DNA from: a virus | Taxonomy: Duplodnaviria > Caudoviricetes | Virus record (IMG/VR): IMGVR_UViG_3300035135_000663 | Location: 1-41,854 of that record | Strand: one strand, 5' to 3' | Length of the DNA stretch: 41,854 nt | Shown here: positions 22,600 to 33,342 of the stretch, piece by piece | Position numbering within the stretch: the first letter of the stretch is position 1 | Layout of the letters: each line of letters starts with the position of its first letter | The notes under the pieces: model-generated | The model's database searches: none | Seen by the model: only the letters and a program-made list of their open reading frames with translations | Told to the model about the DNA's origin: nothing | Translations under genes and position numbers: made by a program

Positions 22600-22638
22600 G
22601 CCCCTTCCTGGTTACACAGCAGGAGGGGGTTTTTCTTT
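22600..22638 (+). terminator. Intrinsic terminator after OMP gene
   Basis: GCCCCTTCCTG-9nt-CAGGAGGGGGT then TTTTCTTT. Confidence 0.8.
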
Positions 22639-22648
22639 GACACCCATC

Positions 22649-22879
22649 ATGCAAAAAGTTTTCAACGCAATGACCGTCGCATCCTTCGTGATGTCTGGAG
22701 CGCTGGTTGGTGGAACGGTGGTGCTTTACACGCGCATTCCGTCAATGGTTGAGAACTACGTCAGCAAGGTGAAGTCAACGCTGACGGAATCAATCTTGAA
22801 GCAAGTGCCCGTCCCAGAGATTCCTGAGATGCCAAAGCTGCCAACGCAGACAGGTCCTGCAATCAGGTCACCATTTTAG
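22649..22879 (+). CDS. Single-TM protein with Pro-rich tail
   Basis: MQKVFNAMTVASFVMSGALVGGTVVLY...VPVPEIPEMPKLPTQTGP. Confidence 0.75.
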   Translation: MQKVFNAMTVASFVMSGALVGGTVVLYTRIPSMVENYVSKVKSTLTESILKQVPVPEIPEMPKLPTQTGPAIRSPF

Positions 22880-27247: not shown

Positions 27248-27463
27248 ATGGGCTGGGCAGACTGGATGGTCGTCAACCAAACCCTTGAAGAGGAGTTGGA
27301 GTTGGAGCGTGCCGTTCGAGACGTTAAAAGCTGCGCTGACGAAGATGCCCTGAAGCAGTTGTGCGTGTCATTGGTACGGACCAACTGGCATCAGGCCAAA
27401 CTGCTGAAGCAAGCAGTCGGTCACATCGGTCAGTTTGACGAGTCGATGTCTTGGTCCGATTGA
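27248..27463 (+). CDS. Small helical-hairpin protein, NblA-like by eye
   Basis: 71 aa; TLEEELELERAVRDV...DALKQLCVSLVRTNWHQAKLLKQAV; ORF secure, family tentative. Confidence 0.55.
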   Translation: MGWADWMVVNQTLEEELELERAVRDVKSCADEDALKQLCVSLVRTNWHQAKLLKQAVGHIGQFDESMSWSD

Positions 27464-27735
27464 GTGAGCTTGTCCAGTCCAAGAGCTTCCCACGCTTTTT
27501 TAGCCTTGCCCTCGACTCTGGCGTTGATGGCTTCTTGGCGTTTGACCTGATCAAAGGCTTCAGCTTTCGCGAAAGCAGCTTGAGTGGTGTTCTCTTGAAT
27601 GTATTTGTAGGCGAGGTCGCGCAGCAGCACAGACGGTTTTATGTCGAACTTCTCGGTCAGTTTTAGGAACAGATCTCCTTTCGCAGGCTCAAACAGCACC
27701 TGGACATGCAGCCGATTGCCGTGCTTACTTGCCAC
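27430..27735 (-). CDS. Probable ribbon-helix-helix DNA-binding protein
   Basis: RLHVQVLF strand, then helix, IKPSVLLRDLAYKYI helix. Confidence 0.6.
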   Translation of the reverse strand: MASKHGNRLHVQVLFEPAKGDLFLKLTEKFDIKPSVLLRDLAYKYIQENTTQAAFAKAEAFDQVKRQEAINARVEGKAKKAWEALGLDKLTQSDQDIDSSN

Positions 27736-28066: not shown

Positions 28067-28320
28067 TTGTCAGCATTAAAGATGTGATGCAGTCTCTTGA
28101 ATTCATGAATTGGCGTTGAAGTAAGAATGCTGACCTCTACATTGCAGCGCAATGCGTTGATGACTTGTCGCTCCATGTAATCCATATTGGATTCATAGGT
28201 GACTTGTTCAACAGCAAGCGGCTTGTCGTCCATATCGAACGAGGTGAACCGCGTTATTGCTAGAGGACAGTGTTCGTCAGCGATCTGGCAGTAATGCAGG
28301 TGAACGTTTTTAGTCCCCAT
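28063..28320 (-). CDS. Hypothetical protein
   Basis: MGTKNVHLHYCQI...; start at 28320 overlaps end of preceding gene. Confidence 0.7.
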   Translation of the reverse strand: MGTKNVHLHYCQIADEHCPLAITRFTSFDMDDKPLAVEQVTYESNMDYMERQVINALRCNVEVSILTSTPIHEFKRLHHIFNADK

Positions 28321-28573
28321 CGCTGGAACGGAAGAGTTCGTTGAATACAGTGGCGACAAGGCTTTCAGCCTGTTGCCTATCCAGACCATAGCTGGATCGA
28401 CGACGAACCTTCGTAACAGCTTTATGAAAATCATTCGTGGTGATGCCGAGGTGGTTCGGTGGTTGCATCAGGCGTTCACGGATCAATTCTGACCTGTGAA
28501 TGCCTTTCTCTTTGGCTTCAGCAGAAAGGCTTTCGGCTAGCTCTTCTGGTAGAAGGGTTTCAACTTTTTTCAT
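28310..28573 (-). CDS. CopG-like ribbon-helix-helix protein
   Basis: MKKVETLLPEELAESLSAEAKEKGIHRSELIRERL. Confidence 0.8.
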   Translation of the reverse strand: MKKVETLLPEELAESLSAEAKEKGIHRSELIRERLMQPPNHLGITTNDFHKAVTKVRRRSSYGLDRQQAESLVATVFNELFRSSDGD

Positions 28574-28574
28574 C

Positions 28575-28600
28575 AAAGAAAGAGGGGGCTTTGTGCCCCC
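28575..28600 (-). terminator. Intrinsic terminator after the ParB-like/RHH pair
   Basis: - strand GGGGGC-ACAAA-GCCCCC then TCTTTCTTT. Confidence 0.7.
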
Positions 28601-28629
28601 AGTAAGACGACAAGTGATTTGAGCAAAAG

Positions 28630-28794
28630 CTAGTCTTGCCAAGACTTCTTGAGCACAGCAAGAATATAGTCGCTGCGTGACTTGTAGACAGACTTTTTGT
28701 AAAGGTTGTCAAGGTGTTCACGCTCTTCAGGTGTCATGCGAACGGGCACAACAACCTTGCTTCGCACGTAGTCTTTTTGAAGATCTTCTTTCAT
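28630..28794 (-). CDS. 54-aa ribbon-helix-helix protein (not in ORF track)
   Basis: MKEDLQKDYVRSKVVVPVRMTPEEREHLDNLYKKSVYKSRSDYILAVLKKSWQD*; ATGA-coupled to ParB-like gene. Confidence 0.8.
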   Translation of the reverse strand: MKEDLQKDYVRSKVVVPVRMTPEEREHLDNLYKKSVYKSRSDYILAVLKKSWQD

Positions 28795-29687
28795 TTGTCT
28801 GACAGAGCAAAGTGAAGGCCGTTAAAAACTCCAGTATTTATGAAAGGATTTTTTGCGTAAGATTTCAAGACAACAACATCTTTTTGAATAAAGAGGTTGA
28901 ATGCAGAGGAGGAACAGAGTCGATAGAAAGCCATGGAATTAGTGGGCTTCCTTGTAGCTTTGCACTTTAGCTTCAGGTCACGATAAACGATGGGACTCTT
29001 TTGTCCGTGGCTAACGGTTCCGCTGCAATCAGATCCTTTTCTAATCAATGAGAAGAAGTCTTTGACAAGATTGTAGTCTTGGCTGGCCTTTAAAAGCAGC
29101 GTTCCAGCGGCGCGTTCACAGGAATTGAGGCTAGTAGATCCATATTGTTCGTCAATCCATTCAAGTTCTTCGTACAGATGATTGTGCATCATTTTTACCT
29201 GATGGCGAACCATTGGGCTGGTAGATCTGACGACGTTTCCATCCTGCCAAGGAGTGATGAGCATTAAGCAAGTGGAGCCAACCGTTCTGGAAATCTTGTG
29301 ACCAGCAATGGTGAGGCGGTCATGAAGTTCTCTTTTGGAGCCGGAGTCAAGGTTCTGTCTTGAGTCGTTCGGCATATTTCTGGCGACCCAAAACACTTGG
29401 GCGAGTCCAGTCTTGACGACAGCGTTGAGGCGATGTTGTCCTTGAATGAGATTGCCGTCTTCGTCAAAGGCGATTGCGTCAGAAGTAAGTGTCCAGCTGT
29501 TCTGGCGCATCTCCTCCTCGTACCGCTTAACGACTGTGGGACGGAGCTTGCGGTTGACGATGTTGGCGCGGAGGTATTGAGCCGCGATTTCAGGAGAGAC
29601 TATCTCCTGTTTCATCGTTGCGTTTGGGCAGAAACCTGGATGTTCCACGGGTGAGATGAATTGATCACTCGTGAAAGCTACTGACAT
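28791..29687 (-). CDS. ParB/Srx-fold (DGQHR-like) protein
   Basis: VSPEIAAQYL..N..NR.L....V..Y...M....W, IAFDEDGNLIQGQHRLNAVV; ATG 29687 preferred over GTG 29717. Confidence 0.8.
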   Translation of the reverse strand: MSVAFTSDQFISPVEHPGFCPNATMKQEIVSPEIAAQYLRANIVNRKLRPTVVKRYEEEMRQNSWTLTSDAIAFDEDGNLIQGQHRLNAVVKTGLAQVFWVARNMPNDSRQNLDSGSKRELHDRLTIAGHKISRTVGSTCLMLITPWQDGNVVRSTSPMVRHQVKMMHNHLYEELEWIDEQYGSTSLNSCERAAGTLLLKASQDYNLVKDFFSLIRKGSDCSGTVSHGQKSPIVYRDLKLKCKATRKPTNSMAFYRLCSSSAFNLFIQKDVVVLKSYAKNPFINTGVFNGLHFALSDK

Positions 29688-29753
29688 CACGTGATAAGCA
29701 CTGACGCTTTGTGACACTACTTATGGTGTCACGCCTTATCACGAAGCTTTACG
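29651..29753. repeat. 10-bp-phased repeat array in two inverted arms, covering a - strand promoter
   Basis: nTGA at 29651, 29661, 29671, 29681, 29691, 29701, 29711; TCACG/TTACG at 29729, 29739, 29749; - strand GTGATA-N17-TAGTGT (29742-29714). Confidence 0.75.
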
Positions 29754-29900
29754 TGGCTTCTTGGCTGACTTTCGCTTTGCTGGCGGCCTGGCCTTTCTCA
29801 GCGCCCTAGCGCGTGACCGTTCCATTGCCGCATCAAGCGCTTCTTTGCGGCCTGGCGGTTCTGGTACGCCACCGCGCTTCAAGATTCCGCTCCAATCCAT
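29739..29900 (-). CDS. 53-aa basic protein (not in ORF track)
   Basis: MDWSGILKRGGVPEPPGRKEALDAAMERSRARALRKARPPAKRKSAKKPRKAS*. Confidence 0.7.
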   Translation of the reverse strand: MDWSGILKRGGVPEPPGRKEALDAAMERSRARALRKARPPAKRKSAKKPRKAS

Positions 29901-29926
29901 CTCTCACGCGTATAGATGTCAAATAG

Positions 29927-30130
29927 TGTCCCCACAGCCCAAATGCCAGTCGTACCAACGGATGTGCTTGGGGACACCATGGGGGGACAATCAGATTTGT
30001 CCCCGTTCCTCCTGAGTCAGCTCGATCTCAACCGCTCCATCCATCAAAGGGGGACACAGGGGCTTGTCCCCCTCGTTTTGTCCCCCATCAGAATCCGCTC
30101 CAGCACTGGCATACGTACCAAAGGGGGACA
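29927..30130. repeat. Putative replication origin: eight TGTCCCC/GGGGACA iterons in dyad symmetry
   Basis: Copies start at 29927, 29970, 29983, 29998, 30050, 30065, 30079, 30124; mirror-spaced about 30027-30028. Confidence 0.8.
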
Positions 30131-32243
30131 TCTTCTGAACCTCTCCGCACGCGAGGTTGGCTTTGTATTCCTTGGAACGAGAATTTTTTGGGACGAATGA
30201 GACGATCAGCTGTTGAGCTTCCAGCCGCTGGAGCGATTTTTTGATTGCAGCTGCAGAGCCAGCAATAACCGCATCAGCCAGCAGATCGGTCTTGGAACGG
30301 GATTCGGGATAAGCCGTCCGAAGGCGATTCAGCACCCGACCACGAACTGATGATGGAGCGGTGTCATCAGGGTCCATCTCAGGCGTGAAGTCAGAGATGT
30401 AGAAGTTGAGGTCATCGTCCTGACCAAGGATCAGATGGGTGCCAGAGCGGCCTGAGCGGCTCTTCTCCACCTCAATCAACCGTTCATGACGTTGAACTTG
30501 TTGCTGCTGCTTGGAGCGCTTCTGCGGATCAGTCTCTGGGCGTTTGAGGCTCCAGGTCTCGTCTACAGCGTCACGGATGGCTGAGGTGCCACGGAAGCCA
30601 CCGTTCTTGTTGGCATGGTGGATGATCAAGATCGTGGTGGCTGGGAACAGATCACCGTTGTTCTTGGTCAGCCAGTACAGCGGAGTGGCGAAGTCTGATT
30701 TGTTTTCATCGAACGCCTTGCCACCGGAGCAGCCAATCAACGAATCGATGACGACCAGCTTGGGCTTGTAGGTTTCCATCAGTTTGATGAACTGGGCGTA
30801 GCGCTGAAGCTGCCAGTCCGTCTGGATGTAGGTGTCGGAGGTGATGGGGAAGTCAGCTTCGATGAGCTGTTCCTTGAGCTGAATCAGAGGCTGATCACCG
30901 TTGAGCAGCAAGACAGGGCCTTGCTCGATTGGAACGGCAGCGCCACGAACCTTGAATGGTGTGCCAGTTGCGATGTGCTTTGCAAGCGCCCAGGCCGCTG
31001 TTGATTTGCCATCACCACCAGCGCCGTAGATGAGGATGACCGAGGGGTGGGGCAGAACATCAGGGATGAGGTAGCCACGCTTCTCTTCCAGCTCCATCAA
31101 CTTTTCAACAGTCATCAGAGATTGTGCTTTCTCGTAAGCGATCTGATCAACGATCAGTTTTTCAAGGGATGACTGATCGCGATAGCCCGCCTGGAGCGCA
31201 AGGGAATTGAGCTTGTAATTGACCTCAGCTGGGTTATCGATTTCAAGGATGCGCTTGGCACGGCGCATGACCTCCTCGAAGTCGAGAGTGGCCTGACGGT
31301 ATTCCTGAACTTTTTTCTCCTCAGCGGCTTTTACGATCTTTTTTGTATCTTCCGAAAATCGGTGCCTCTCTGGGTCAGCACGATCAGCCATCCAGATCAG
31401 GGTGCCAAGGCCAACACCAGAGCCCTTGAAGGAGTACCAAGTGTCCTCACAAGGATTCTCGCCATCAGCCCACTCATGGGCGAAGTCAGGGTCTTCTGAG
31501 GACCAAGCTGACCAGAGAACAAGACCGAGGTCGTTGGGCAGAGCGGAGTGAATCGCCATGCCAACCTTGACCCAGTGATCACGGCTGCCTTTGCCTTGGG
31601 TCGGAATGACCTTGAGGCAATCGTTGATGATCTGACAGACCTCATCTTGGGTCCGATCAGTGAAGTCAAGGTCGCGTTTGATCATGGCCTTAGGCGGCTG
31701 TTTCATCTCAGCCAGCAGCCAGTCAGGTGCGACAGGGATGCGGTTTAAATCACCTTCTAAATGGTATTGCCCTGGTACGGAAACTTTGCCACCGGGGTAA
31801 GCGCCATAGATAACGCCCTGACGTTTGCTGTTCCAGAGGATTTCGTAGTCATCGTCATCACCGAGGCCACGACCTTCGACTTCATTCCAGAGGTTTTCTG
31901 GAACGCGGAAGATGTACTTGGCGGCGTTTTTCTTGGTTGACGTGACCTTTGGAGCGCCTTCGAGGGTGTCACCCCAGCGAGCGATGACTTTGTTGAGGTT
32001 GCGATCAACGTCAAGGATGACGATGCCTTTGCCACGGATGCCAGTGAAGATGCCAACCGCTTGGATGTCAGGGTTTTGCCGAGCAGCGAGGGCAACATCT
32101 GCTGGACCCAGCAAGAAATCAAAGGATTCCTTGGTGGGGTTCTTGCCGCCTGCCAGCTTGCCGCCAGGCATCTTGGCCCCCTTGCGGTAGATGGCGGCGT
32201 AGACCAGCGCTTCAGGCAGCGCCTTGACGAAATCCGAAAACAT
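29991..32243 (-). CDS. Primase-polymerase (PrimPol + PriCT-2) fused to RecA-like/AAA_25 helicase, with probable C-terminal winged helix
   Basis: VGIFTG...IVILDVD; W.KVGMAIH...W..WS; Walker A GAGGDGKS; Walker B LVVIDSL; IIHHANK; RGTSAI; KSR. Confidence 0.92.
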   Translation of the reverse strand: MFSDFVKALPEALVYAAIYRKGAKMPGGKLAGGKNPTKESFDFLLGPADVALAARQNPDIQAVGIFTGIRGKGIVILDVDRNLNKVIARWGDTLEGAPKVTSTKKNAAKYIFRVPENLWNEVEGRGLGDDDDYEILWNSKRQGVIYGAYPGGKVSVPGQYHLEGDLNRIPVAPDWLLAEMKQPPKAMIKRDLDFTDRTQDEVCQIINDCLKVIPTQGKGSRDHWVKVGMAIHSALPNDLGLVLWSAWSSEDPDFAHEWADGENPCEDTWYSFKGSGVGLGTLIWMADRADPERHRFSEDTKKIVKAAEEKKVQEYRQATLDFEEVMRRAKRILEIDNPAEVNYKLNSLALQAGYRDQSSLEKLIVDQIAYEKAQSLMTVEKLMELEEKRGYLIPDVLPHPSVILIYGAGGDGKSTAAWALAKHIATGTPFKVRGAAVPIEQGPVLLLNGDQPLIQLKEQLIEADFPITSDTYIQTDWQLQRYAQFIKLMETYKPKLVVIDSLIGCSGGKAFDENKSDFATPLYWLTKNNGDLFPATTILIIHHANKNGGFRGTSAIRDAVDETWSLKRPETDPQKRSKQQQQVQRHERLIEVEKSRSGRSGTHLILGQDDDLNFYISDFTPEMDPDDTAPSSVRGRVLNRLRTAYPESRSKTDLLADAVIAGSAAAIKKSLQRLEAQQLIVSFVPKNSRSKEYKANLACGEVQKMSPFGTYASAGADSDGGQNEGDKPLCPPLMDGAVEIELTQEERGQI

Positions 32244-32253
32244 CGTGTATTAT
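32224..32253 (+). promoter_or_regulatory. sigma70-type promoter antisense to primase
   Basis: TTGACG (32224-29), N18, TATTAT (32248-53). Confidence 0.7.
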
Positions 32254-32259
32254 TCGAGA

Positions 32260-32323
32260 GTTGTGTGTATGATTCCCGACCATTTCTCGCTTGAGCTGGG
32301 CGAGAAGCGGTCGGGATTTTTTT
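32260..32323 (+). ncRNA. Predicted ~64-nt counter-transcribed RNA, antisense to the primase leader
   Basis: Promoter upstream; stem TCCCGACC/GGTCGGGA plus TTCTCGC/GCGAGAA (32274-32316) and T7 tract (32317-23); no ORF. Confidence 0.6.
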
Positions 32324-32329
32324 ATCCTA
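32324..32329 (-). promoter_or_regulatory. Probable -10 element for primase-helicase
   Basis: - strand GCGG-TAGGAT; no good -35. Confidence 0.5.
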
Positions 32330-32336
32330 CCGCAAC

Positions 32337-32366
32337 TTGACAAGCCCAACAGACCCGACCTAGCTT
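32337..32366 (+). promoter_or_regulatory. sigma70-type promoter for the rightward replication/recombination operon
   Basis: TTGACA (32337-42), N18, TAGCTT (32361-66). Confidence 0.65.
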
Positions 32367-32412
32367 TCTAGGGCGTCAGTTTTTGGCGCGGCAACTAAAG
32401 AGGCAACTCAAC

Positions 32413-33015
32413 GTGAATCTTTCCGATTCTTATCTCTCAATTCTCAACAGCGAAAACGAAGGAGGCTCTTCAACCGAGAGCTATCTGCGTTACACAAAGC
32501 TCGAACAGGGCAAGCCTGCAAATTTTGCATTGCTTGAGCAAGACCCGCTCTGCTACTGGCTTGTCTGGGGTGTTGATGCAAACGAGAAGATGAAACCTTT
32601 TCGTTTCATGACTCAACCAACGGCTGATGAAATCAAGCTCGAACTGGGCTCTGATTACAGCCAATGCCTCAACTATGACAAGACTGCAGTGCGTAAGCCT
32701 GTGGAATGCCTGACCTGGCCTGTTTACAACTGGGACACAAATTCAGTCCAAGTTCTTGAAGTTTCCCACGTTTCATTGGGACGGCAGTTTGCCAAGTATG
32801 GCCTGAACAAAAAGTACAGCAAAAATCTGCTGGACTGGGACTTCGAGCTGTCGAAGATCAAGGCTGACATGGTGCGGTACGAGCTGCTGATCGTTCCCCG
32901 TGACGAAGACGAGCACGATGAGGTCGCCATGGCGAAAGCCTGGAAAGCTGTCGAGCGAGATGGCTTCGATCTGAATCGGATCGTGGTCGGCGGTGATCCG
33001 TTCAGCGAGGGTTGA
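32413..33015 (+). CDS. Putative ssDNA-binding/annealing protein
   Basis: GTG start; WPVYNWD...VQVLEV, WDFELSK, ends DPFSEG; between primase and exonuclease; function inferred. Confidence 0.6.
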   Translation: MNLSDSYLSILNSENEGGSSTESYLRYTKLEQGKPANFALLEQDPLCYWLVWGVDANEKMKPFRFMTQPTADEIKLELGSDYSQCLNYDKTAVRKPVECLTWPVYNWDTNSVQVLEVSHVSLGRQFAKYGLNKKYSKNLLDWDFELSKIKADMVRYELLIVPRDEDEHDEVAMAKAWKAVERDGFDLNRIVVGGDPFSEG

Positions 33016-33018
33016 GCT

Positions 33019-33342
33019 GTGGAACTAAACGCTAGAAATGCGTTGGAATCCATAGATGAATCCTTGGATTGCATTGCTCGCAACCTTCCTGAGACTTCAA
33101 GGTTTGACACTGGTGATCTTGAGGCGGCCATTCTCAATGGATTTTCCAAGCTTGGTCCCGGCTTAGGAGGTCAATGGTTCGACAAAAGTTTGGAGAACAT
33201 TGACGACCACCTGAACGAGATCCGAGTCGCCACGGACATGCAAAGCGAGTACCTTCACGACATTCACGTCTCTCTACGTCATCTGGCTGAGTTAAAAGCT
33301 GGCCGCAAGCTTGACGGTTATTGGGCAGACATCGAGGACTGA
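33019..33342 (+). CDS. Hypothetical acidic helical protein
   Basis: 107 aa, GTG start 3 nt after previous stop, followed by terminator. Confidence 0.7.
   Translation: MELNARNALESIDESLDCIARNLPETSRFDTGDLEAAILNGFSKLGPGLGGQWFDKSLENIDDHLNEIRVATDMQSEYLHDIHVSLRHLAELKAGRKLDGYWADIED

Follow-up and report, generated by a model that had tools for sequence, protein, structure and literature searches.

Does an integrase-less siphophage that carries plasmid-like replication signals live as a plasmid, or do these signals belong to the replication machinery of an ordinary phage? The question is raised by IMG/VR record IMGVR_UViG_3300035135_000663 (positions 1 to 41,854; hereafter the window, meaning this whole stretch of 41,854 nucleotides), a complete 41.8-kb siphophage genome with direct terminal repeats (97-nt terminal overlap, 100% identity). 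Between 28,575 and 32,366 it harbors a gene for a primase-helicase, here called Rep, a repeat cluster, a promoter and terminator antisense to the Rep leader, and a gene pair for a ParB-fold and a ribbon-helix-helix (RHH) protein. The first-pass annotation regarded these parts as one maintenance module of a phage that may persist outside the chromosome. Our analysis points instead to a replication module composed of an origin and an antisense throttle, which probably belongs to a lytic or pseudolysogenic marine cyanosiphovirus. A search of IMG/VR with Rep confirmed 328 stretches, from which 79 loci were kept and analyzed; two distant Rep homologues used as queries yielded no viral loci. Features, conservation, covariation and linkage were established from these sequences, while binding by Rep, transcription, replication and the host are predictions.

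Rep (29991..32243, minus strand) comprises 750 amino acids (aa) with matches to Prim-Pol, PriCT_2 and AAA_25, all within one open reading frame (ORF), so that the annotated primase-helicase was confirmed; catalytic activity of the protein is predicted. The PrimPol domain occupies residues ~1-180 (the N-terminal 200 aa matched Prim-Pol PF09250 with E 4.5e-6), PriCT-2 residues 207-286 and a RecA/SF4-type helicase of the AAA_25 family residues 379-620. They are followed by a predicted winged helix (630-695), modeled as helix-helix-helix-hairpin, and by a disordered tail whose codons run over the predicted origin. The nearest named atlas cluster to residues 630-695 was MarR (0.75), and the best fold matches of the helicase model were DnaB and RSF1010 RepA. 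Rep does not belong to the SF3 (D5/P4) or MCM AAA+ helicase class. Because its helicase is RecA/SF4-like, the analogy to P4 alpha that had been drawn for it is a loose one, which holds for the primase-helicase combination and not for the type of helicase. Residues 45-286 (N-terminal ~240 aa) are 30% identical to Rep of the Synechococcus elongatus plasmid pANS; past residue 286 no similarity between the two proteins was found.

The symmetric iteron cluster annotated at the 3′ end of the Rep gene was confirmed as well and is kept across the family. Ten copies of GGGGACA exist in the genome, eight of which reside within 204 bp (29927-30130) spanning the Rep stop codon, five inside the reading frame of the Rep tail and three past the stop. 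They lie at 29927 (-), 29970 (+), 29983 (+), 29998 (-), 30050 (+), 30065 (-), 30079 (-) and 30124 (+), which gives the order -++-+--+ with dyad symmetry about ~30027, and are flanked by inverted CGCG-containing boxes (29902-29915 and 30142-30155), so that the whole predicted origin extends from 29902 to 30155. In 40 dinucleotide shuffles the biggest cluster of any 7-mer in 210 bp had three to four members, compared to the eight observed, and the array is the sole such cluster in the genome. A DNA-only search with the half-array retrieved 85 loci, 82 of which matched the C-terminus of the window Rep (one weakly). The array is likely to be the origin at which Rep would initiate replication.

A similar arrangement has been described for the Staphylococcus aureus pathogenicity islands (SaPIs), whose Reps bind 6-12 opposed iterons just 3′ of rep via a winged helix (PMC9371898). 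SaPI Pri-Rep-ori units such as PriRep5 share with the window the primase-helicase fusion and the opposed 3′ iterons, and their C-terminal winged helix would correspond to the one predicted for Rep (PMC9371898). They differ in possessing SF3/MCM AAA+ instead of RecA/SF4-like helicases and in the AT-rich center of their origins (PMC9371898), which the window's origin lacks; moreover, five of the eight window sites are located inside the frame. SaPIs also integrate, and an antisense unit is not described in the available part of that account (PMC9371898).

We compared the arrays of 67 full-length Reps and found mostly GGGGACA sites in 28, (C)TGGACA in 22 and TGGGACA in 17 of them. In the GGGGACA and TGGACA groups the sites lie at essentially equal offsets. 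The 22 Reps of the latter group have TGGACA in all eight positions, non-coding sites included, and the T-type half-array was present twice, in inverted orientation, in 34 of 37 loci. The type of the origin tracks the block comprising helicase and winged helix (residues ~345-750), and the PrimPol half undergoes recombination: all diagnostic columns but one lie at or after residue 345, and a tree of the PrimPol part separates the T-type members from one another. At residue 668, which is situated in the predicted recognition helix, the 93 loci with GGGACA have Lys or Arg, and the 60 loci with TGGACA have His or Gln (four loci could not be typed, being too short or too weak, and the loci are partly redundant). 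The window Rep contains Lys at this position, the TGGACA clade His or Gln. Other recognition helices were seen in four distant Reps, whose identity to P0033 or its own cluster is 43-47%, and three of them exhibit other repeated motifs in the same place. In one further origin (L078), TGAGACA and TGGGACA sites are mixed and the predicted recognition helix shows a Gln-to-His change, which possibly reflects a second specificity shift in progress.

Alternatively, the repeats could be Rep sites serving autoregulation or downstream genes, the true origin being located elsewhere, and the array center, which is not AT-rich, would agree with this, as would the strand bias of the motif TGGARCG, which does not switch at the array. 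Yet the array has no second counterpart in the genome, its position 3′ of Rep and its opposed arms match the SaPI origins (PMC9371898), and it travels with the helicase-winged-helix block. We consider an origin elsewhere highly improbable. As for the motif itself, no 7-mers are more strongly over-represented in the window than TGGAGCG (46 copies, 6.3 expected) and TGGAACG (47 copies, 8.8 expected). The strand bias of TGGARCG amounts to 72:21 genome-wide, and 41 of 41 related loci show it over 10 kb. Of 56 origins, 48 retain one copy close to the center, and three of the four distant origins with other iterons again contain TGGAACG. TGGARCG is a candidate for a site recognized by the primase or for a Chi-like site, and part of the pattern is explained by codon phase.

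At the other end of the Rep gene, the annotated promoter and terminator facing the leader proved to be conserved. The putative antisense promoter TTGACG-N18-TATTAT (32224..32253, plus strand) has its -35 box in Rep codons 5-7, while its -10 box ends 4 nt before the ATG. The predicted counter-transcript of ~64 nt (32260..32323, plus strand) is complementary to the Rep 5′ leader and consists of a single-stranded 5′ tail, a hairpin (32274-32316) and a U-run terminator. For Rep itself, a -10 box TAGGAT is predicted at 32324..32329 (minus strand), from which the mRNA would start in an A-run just before the hairpin; a TAnnnT box plus A-run was found in 48 of 51 distinct leaders. Sites of the type TTGAC-N17-19-TAnnnT occur only three times in the genome, the antisense promoter being one of them. 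Its -10 box is present in all 60 distinct leaders, compared to 24 of 276 starts of neighboring genes (15 of the 24 in one gene). This search was anchored on the ATG; anchoring on the Phe-Val codons missed three distant leaders. The complete promoter TTGACR-N18-TAnnnT was detected in 44 of 51 leaders. The coding sequence overlapping the -35 box is constrained too: Val6 is encoded by GTC in 49 of 49 cases, only two of 25 conserved Val columns being invariant in this way, the other one in the origin, and the following codon alternates between Lys and Asn yet retains AA.

The hairpin of the window is significant on the plus strand (z -4.3), where it is followed by a run of T7, and also on the opposite strand (z -5.7); its strand preference was therefore deduced from the relatives only. 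In 58 of 60 leaders the hairpin ends in a T-run, and in 48 of 60 the antisense fold is more stable than the sense fold. Compensatory changes were seen in seven of 13 consensus pairs (20 leaders), and non-canonical stem cells could be read as G-U pairs 92 times on the antisense strand against 23 times on the sense strand, though these related sequences are not independent. While the base of the hairpin is fixed, its upper stem and loop diversify. Rfam gave no match near the gathering score, the best one at the antisense site being sroE with 18.5 against 51 bits. The rep leader of pANS (L097:70-154) also comprises a hairpin that folds stably as antisense RNA (z -2.8) but not as sense RNA (z -0.2) and that ends in a U-run, so that a counter-transcript is possible in this S. 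elongatus plasmid too.

These findings might also be explained if the antisense promoter and terminator acted by transcription only, colliding with the Rep promoter or occluding it and insulating the divergent early promoter, with an RNA that is inert in trans. The two promoters face each other at a distance of 64 nt, pO of lambda uses this mechanism to lower transcription from pR (PMC3985674), and a terminator alone accounts for the G-U strand bias and the U-run. However, the length of the leader and the 5′ tail are kept, neither of which is needed by a terminator, and an upper stem and loop diversifying on a fixed base are expected for specificity groups. A purely transcriptional role thus appears unlikely to us.

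The replication module that we favor would work as follows. The winged helix of Rep would bind the GGGGACA sites, four per arm, with residue 668 reading the base before GGACA (Lys or Arg with G, His or Gln with T). Helicase rings would be loaded on the two arms of the array, Rep acting as its own loader, and PrimPol would prime, possibly at TGGARCG. From inside Rep codons 5-7, the antisense promoter would fire toward the Rep promoter at a distance of 64 nt. The self-terminating transcript thus made would pair with the Rep leader and lower the output of Rep by a block of ribosome entry, duplex cleavage and/or transcriptional collision. As a result, firing of the origin would be paced or shut off. 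Diverging loops and iteron types would prevent cross-talk between co-infecting relatives.

Several points weigh against this reading or parts of it. The winged helix was predicted from an AlphaFold secondary-structure pattern (pLDDT 61-78) and has no Pfam match. Motif II of PrimPol domains usually contains His; since Rep has Lys there (pANS Rep has Gln), its primase activity is putative. With 47% A+T (45-bp), the center of the origin is not AT-rich, which sets it apart from the origins of SaPIs and lambda. Seven of 51 leaders have no -35 box, the sense strand folds equally well or better in 12 of 60, and the predicted antisense RNA ends 14-17 nt short of the Rep start codon. There is no gene upstream, and Rep is therefore the sole cis target of the RNA, which is more plasmid-like than the situation in lambda and keeps a carrier state in the discussion. 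In trees of the helicase and of the winged helix, the G-to-T switch of the iterons took place once, and the G-type and T-type clades differ in dozens of further residues. Since so many residues co-segregate with this single event, residue 668 represents a candidate code and no proof of one. Finally, assembled contigs from four seawater RNA runs (one study) cover the Rep region, but as contigs they give no strand, ends or level.

Do these devices indicate a plasmid? In lambda, iterons are located within O, and pO by the first codon of O gives rise to a self-terminating antisense RNA involved in replication control (PMC3985674, PMC3349717). As in the window, the antisense -10 box lies a few bases off the initiator's opening codon, the RNA is short and self-terminating, and the iterons are intragenic; a role in silencing early replication has been assigned to oop/pO (PMC3985674, PMC3349717). 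Since lambda has the same geometry, an origin and antisense unit of this kind do not imply plasmid life. The interpretation of the first-pass annotation stands in part: the iteron-like origin and the antisense unit are real, while, given the lambda parallel, the step from them to a phage-plasmid lifestyle is weak (PMC3985674, PMC3349717). The two systems are not identical. The target of lambda OOP is the end of cII, whereas that of the window RNA would be the Rep leader; the lambda initiator O is no primase-helicase, and lambda possesses CI and an integrase.

Plasmids offer parallels as well. RNAII of pMV158 resembles the window RNA in its single hairpin, single-stranded 5′ tail and U-rich end and in facing a rep leader (PMC4485353). 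In both systems RHH proteins are encoded nearby, CopG of pMV158 being co-transcribed upstream of rep (PMC4485353), whereas the RHH genes of the window lie downstream of Rep, whose regulation by them is putative; in addition, the pMV158 Rep is of the rolling-circle type. The Rep of pANS (pUH24) is homologous to the window Rep in its PrimPol-PriCT2 part, and its gene has a similar antisense-biased leader hairpin. The Synechocystis plasmid pSYSA (asRNA1/Slr7037) has antisense copy control upstream of a primase-helicase Rep (PMC9978351, PMC10079941), but asRNA1 is 153 nt long, forms three stems and overlaps a separate small gene, unlike the window RNA (PMC9978351, PMC10079941). The module of the window would work like the SaPI, lambda, pMV158 and pSYSA systems, yet it is a member of none. 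A literature search of limited coverage for phage antisense RNAs combined with a primase-helicase and iterons found nothing, which does not establish absence from print, and an equally limited one for phage-plasmids since 2021 found nothing either.

According to an alternative view, the phage is a phage-plasmid or persists in a carrier state, in which Rep, origin and antisense unit together hold the copy number steady in growing cells, lytic genes are repressed by the core RHH proteins and segregation is random. This would agree with a counter-transcript targeting the Rep leader only, like RNAII of pMV158 (PMC4485353), with the homology of the Rep N-terminus to a plasmid Rep whose leader has an antisense-biased hairpin, with antisense copy control in the cyanobacterial plasmid pSYSA (PMC9978351), with two core RHH genes downstream of Rep, which could encode repressors, and with the lack of an integrase. 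Indeed, as annotated, the complete genome contains neither an integrase nor ParA, and both are also missing in the searched relatives. The window and 29 related virus records, among which 15 have a completeness of at least 90%, gave no tyrosine integrase. ParA (PF13614) and resolvase were likewise missing from the window and 19 related virus records, as was an HTH_3 repressor from the window and 15 relatives. None of the unassigned ORFs of the region matched ParM or TubZ families, no family-targeted search for these having been made. Integrase, ParA and resolvase matches in one genome (G017) were not counted as phage genes because they reside on contigs other than the Rep-bearing one.

The missing ParA and HTH_3 repressor argue against a carrier state, as does the use of the same devices by lambda in lytic growth. 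Furthermore, 72,556 plasmid records contained no full-length Rep relative, and 185,579 species genomes, in a search that detects close relatives only, gave only six short contigs (8-31 kb) of metagenome-assembled genomes, binned with unrelated phyla, none of them cyanobacterial. Most simply, these contigs are mis-binned phage. Isolates of marine picocyanobacteria are few. Taken together, the searches for integrase, ParA, resolvase and HTH_3 and those of plasmids and species genomes indicate neither integration nor canonical plasmid maintenance, and we regard a carrier state as possible though rather unlikely. An 80-aa gene (22637-22879) matching phrog_568 'plasmid stability' lies among cyanophage-type late genes and was not used as an argument for plasmid life.

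The remaining part of the proposed module is the gene pair downstream of the origin. It encodes an accessory protein of 274 aa (298 aa from an upstream ATG; 28791..29615, minus strand; phrog_5931) and, as last gene, a 54-aa RHH-like protein (28630..28794, minus strand; sub-threshold NikA-like match, E 0.005), and is closed by a terminator-like hairpin (28584..28600, minus strand). The N-terminal 100 residues of the larger protein, which include a GQHRLNA box, are ParB/Srx-like by structure only (VIA Z 4.7-6.5, the top seven all of the ParB/Srx type and sulfiredoxin scoring highest). Foldseek disclosed nothing at E<=0.001, Pfam no match, NCBIfam and PADLOC no meaningful match, and PDB sequence searches with this protein and both alignments nothing at E<0.08. 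Its C-terminal half is helical and unrelated, with no match to ParB DNA-binding domains. The putative operator/promoter of the cassette (29652..29753, minus strand) contains TCA seven times at an exact 10-bp period (29652-29714) and an inverted arm, GTGACAC-N8-GTGTCAC. Thus, the annotated phased array, ParB-like gene and RHH gene could be retrieved, the latter below threshold. The TCA run is the only one of its kind in the genome (maximum of four in 100 shuffles). Beside par-like genes it could be taken for centromere-like repeats, and it fits an RHH operator equally well. The most plausible role of the run is that of an operator for the small RHH protein, which likely represses its own promoter through the phased repeats and would thereby be autoregulated.

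The assumption of a single maintenance module including this pair had to be abandoned. In 50 of 60 loci nothing fills the slot that separates the 53-aa ORF from the core RHH gene, and 14 of 15 complete relatives lack the 274-aa family. The ten filled slots contain close orthologues (four), a 35-38% identical paralogue (five) or a P63C-like gene (one), each followed by a small RHH-like gene, and the inspected promoter regions carry repeats of their own. Paralogous cassettes with their own promoters and operators occur at other sites. Homologues of the 274-aa protein were detected in 81 phage records of varied hosts, a Mycobacterium prophage among them, and thus in ordinary temperate and other phages. 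The parts whose co-conservation the first-pass annotation had made the test of its proposal behave differently: Rep, origin and antisense unit occur family-wide, the ParB-fold and RHH pair does not. If the pair and its array were a non-canonical partition system of the replicon, the order of array, large gene and RHH gene would presumably correspond to that of type Ib par loci, and the ParB/Srx-like domain with its GxxRxxA box would suit such a role. Against this stand the variable occupancy by three different cargos, the rarity of the gene in complete relatives, the paralogous cassettes elsewhere, the wide distribution of homologues, a C-terminal half unlike ParB DNA-binding domains and a missing motor NTPase (ParA searched). 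We consider partition extremely doubtful; the pair is best explained as a separate, exchangeable cassette and no partition system, which removes the partition argument.

ParB-like cassettes at a second site lie downstream of the 210-aa gene described below (L004, L005, L006, L056, L057, L059); they encode a 42-45-aa RHH protein and have TGACA/TGTCA repeats in the promoter. Cassettes at a third site are located further out (L013, L014, L042).

Some neighboring features complete the region. Directly after the origin lies a conserved ORF for a basic 53-aa protein (29739..29900, minus strand) without family match. The gene for the 87-aa core RHH protein (28310..28573, minus strand) is situated 3′ of Rep; it is kept in the close clade with or without the cassette, and its product is a candidate phage transcription regulator. 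A third RHH-like gene (27430-27735; RHH_9, sub-threshold) has an antisense TAnnnT box at 15 of 24 distinct starts, which hints at a second convergent promoter. Divergent from Rep, a 210-aa gene (32383-33015) had no family or phage match, and for this reason the name single-stranded DNA-binding protein was not given to it. It would be served, together with an exonuclease gene, by a predicted divergent promoter, TTGACA-N18-TAGCTT (32337..32366, plus strand). Around the start of the divergent early transcript (32355-32380) there are GCGTC/GACGC-type inverted repeats recurring in many relatives, possibly an operator for a core RHH protein. A 107-aa ORF after the 210-aa gene (33019-33342) is another accessory insertion, and contigs in three RNA runs join across it.

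As to the host, the tail genes of the phage are lambda-like, its genome contains a cyanophage OMP-like gene, and another gene had 438 phage matches, nearly all to cyanophages. The layout of ATPase, exonuclease and dCTP deaminase is common to the window and the Synechococcus phage S-CBS4, in which a RecA-type ATPase (gp082, 28% over 283 aa) is likewise divergent from the two other genes. The gp082 protein has a different N-terminal domain, and in its region neither a repeat array nor an antisense promoter of the window type was found. A cyanobacterial host is likely for the window phage and probable for its family, which is widespread, uncultured and oceanic.

The data define a compact replicon of ~2.5 kb in an uncultured, widespread marine phage family, with a predicted origin and a predicted antisense RNA that has no Rfam family. 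It offers a testable specificity switch between protein and DNA, and the predictions can be tested with synthetic fragments; the leader hairpin of pANS provides a candidate counter-transcript testable in the S. elongatus plasmid. Wild Synechococcus yields cyanophages on induction, even though isolates are without prophages (PMC6157547). A copy-controlled extrachromosomal state would address this open question, and on the present evidence it is only possible. Tentatively, this abundant family of marine cyanosiphoviruses without integrase may persist in picocyanobacteria at low copy, checked by a counter-transcript of the plasmid type and by a RecA-type primase-helicase that loads itself, and divided into incompatibility groups by a one-residue iteron code. 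If true, such low-copy persistence would be a lysogeny-like route in hosts almost devoid of prophages.

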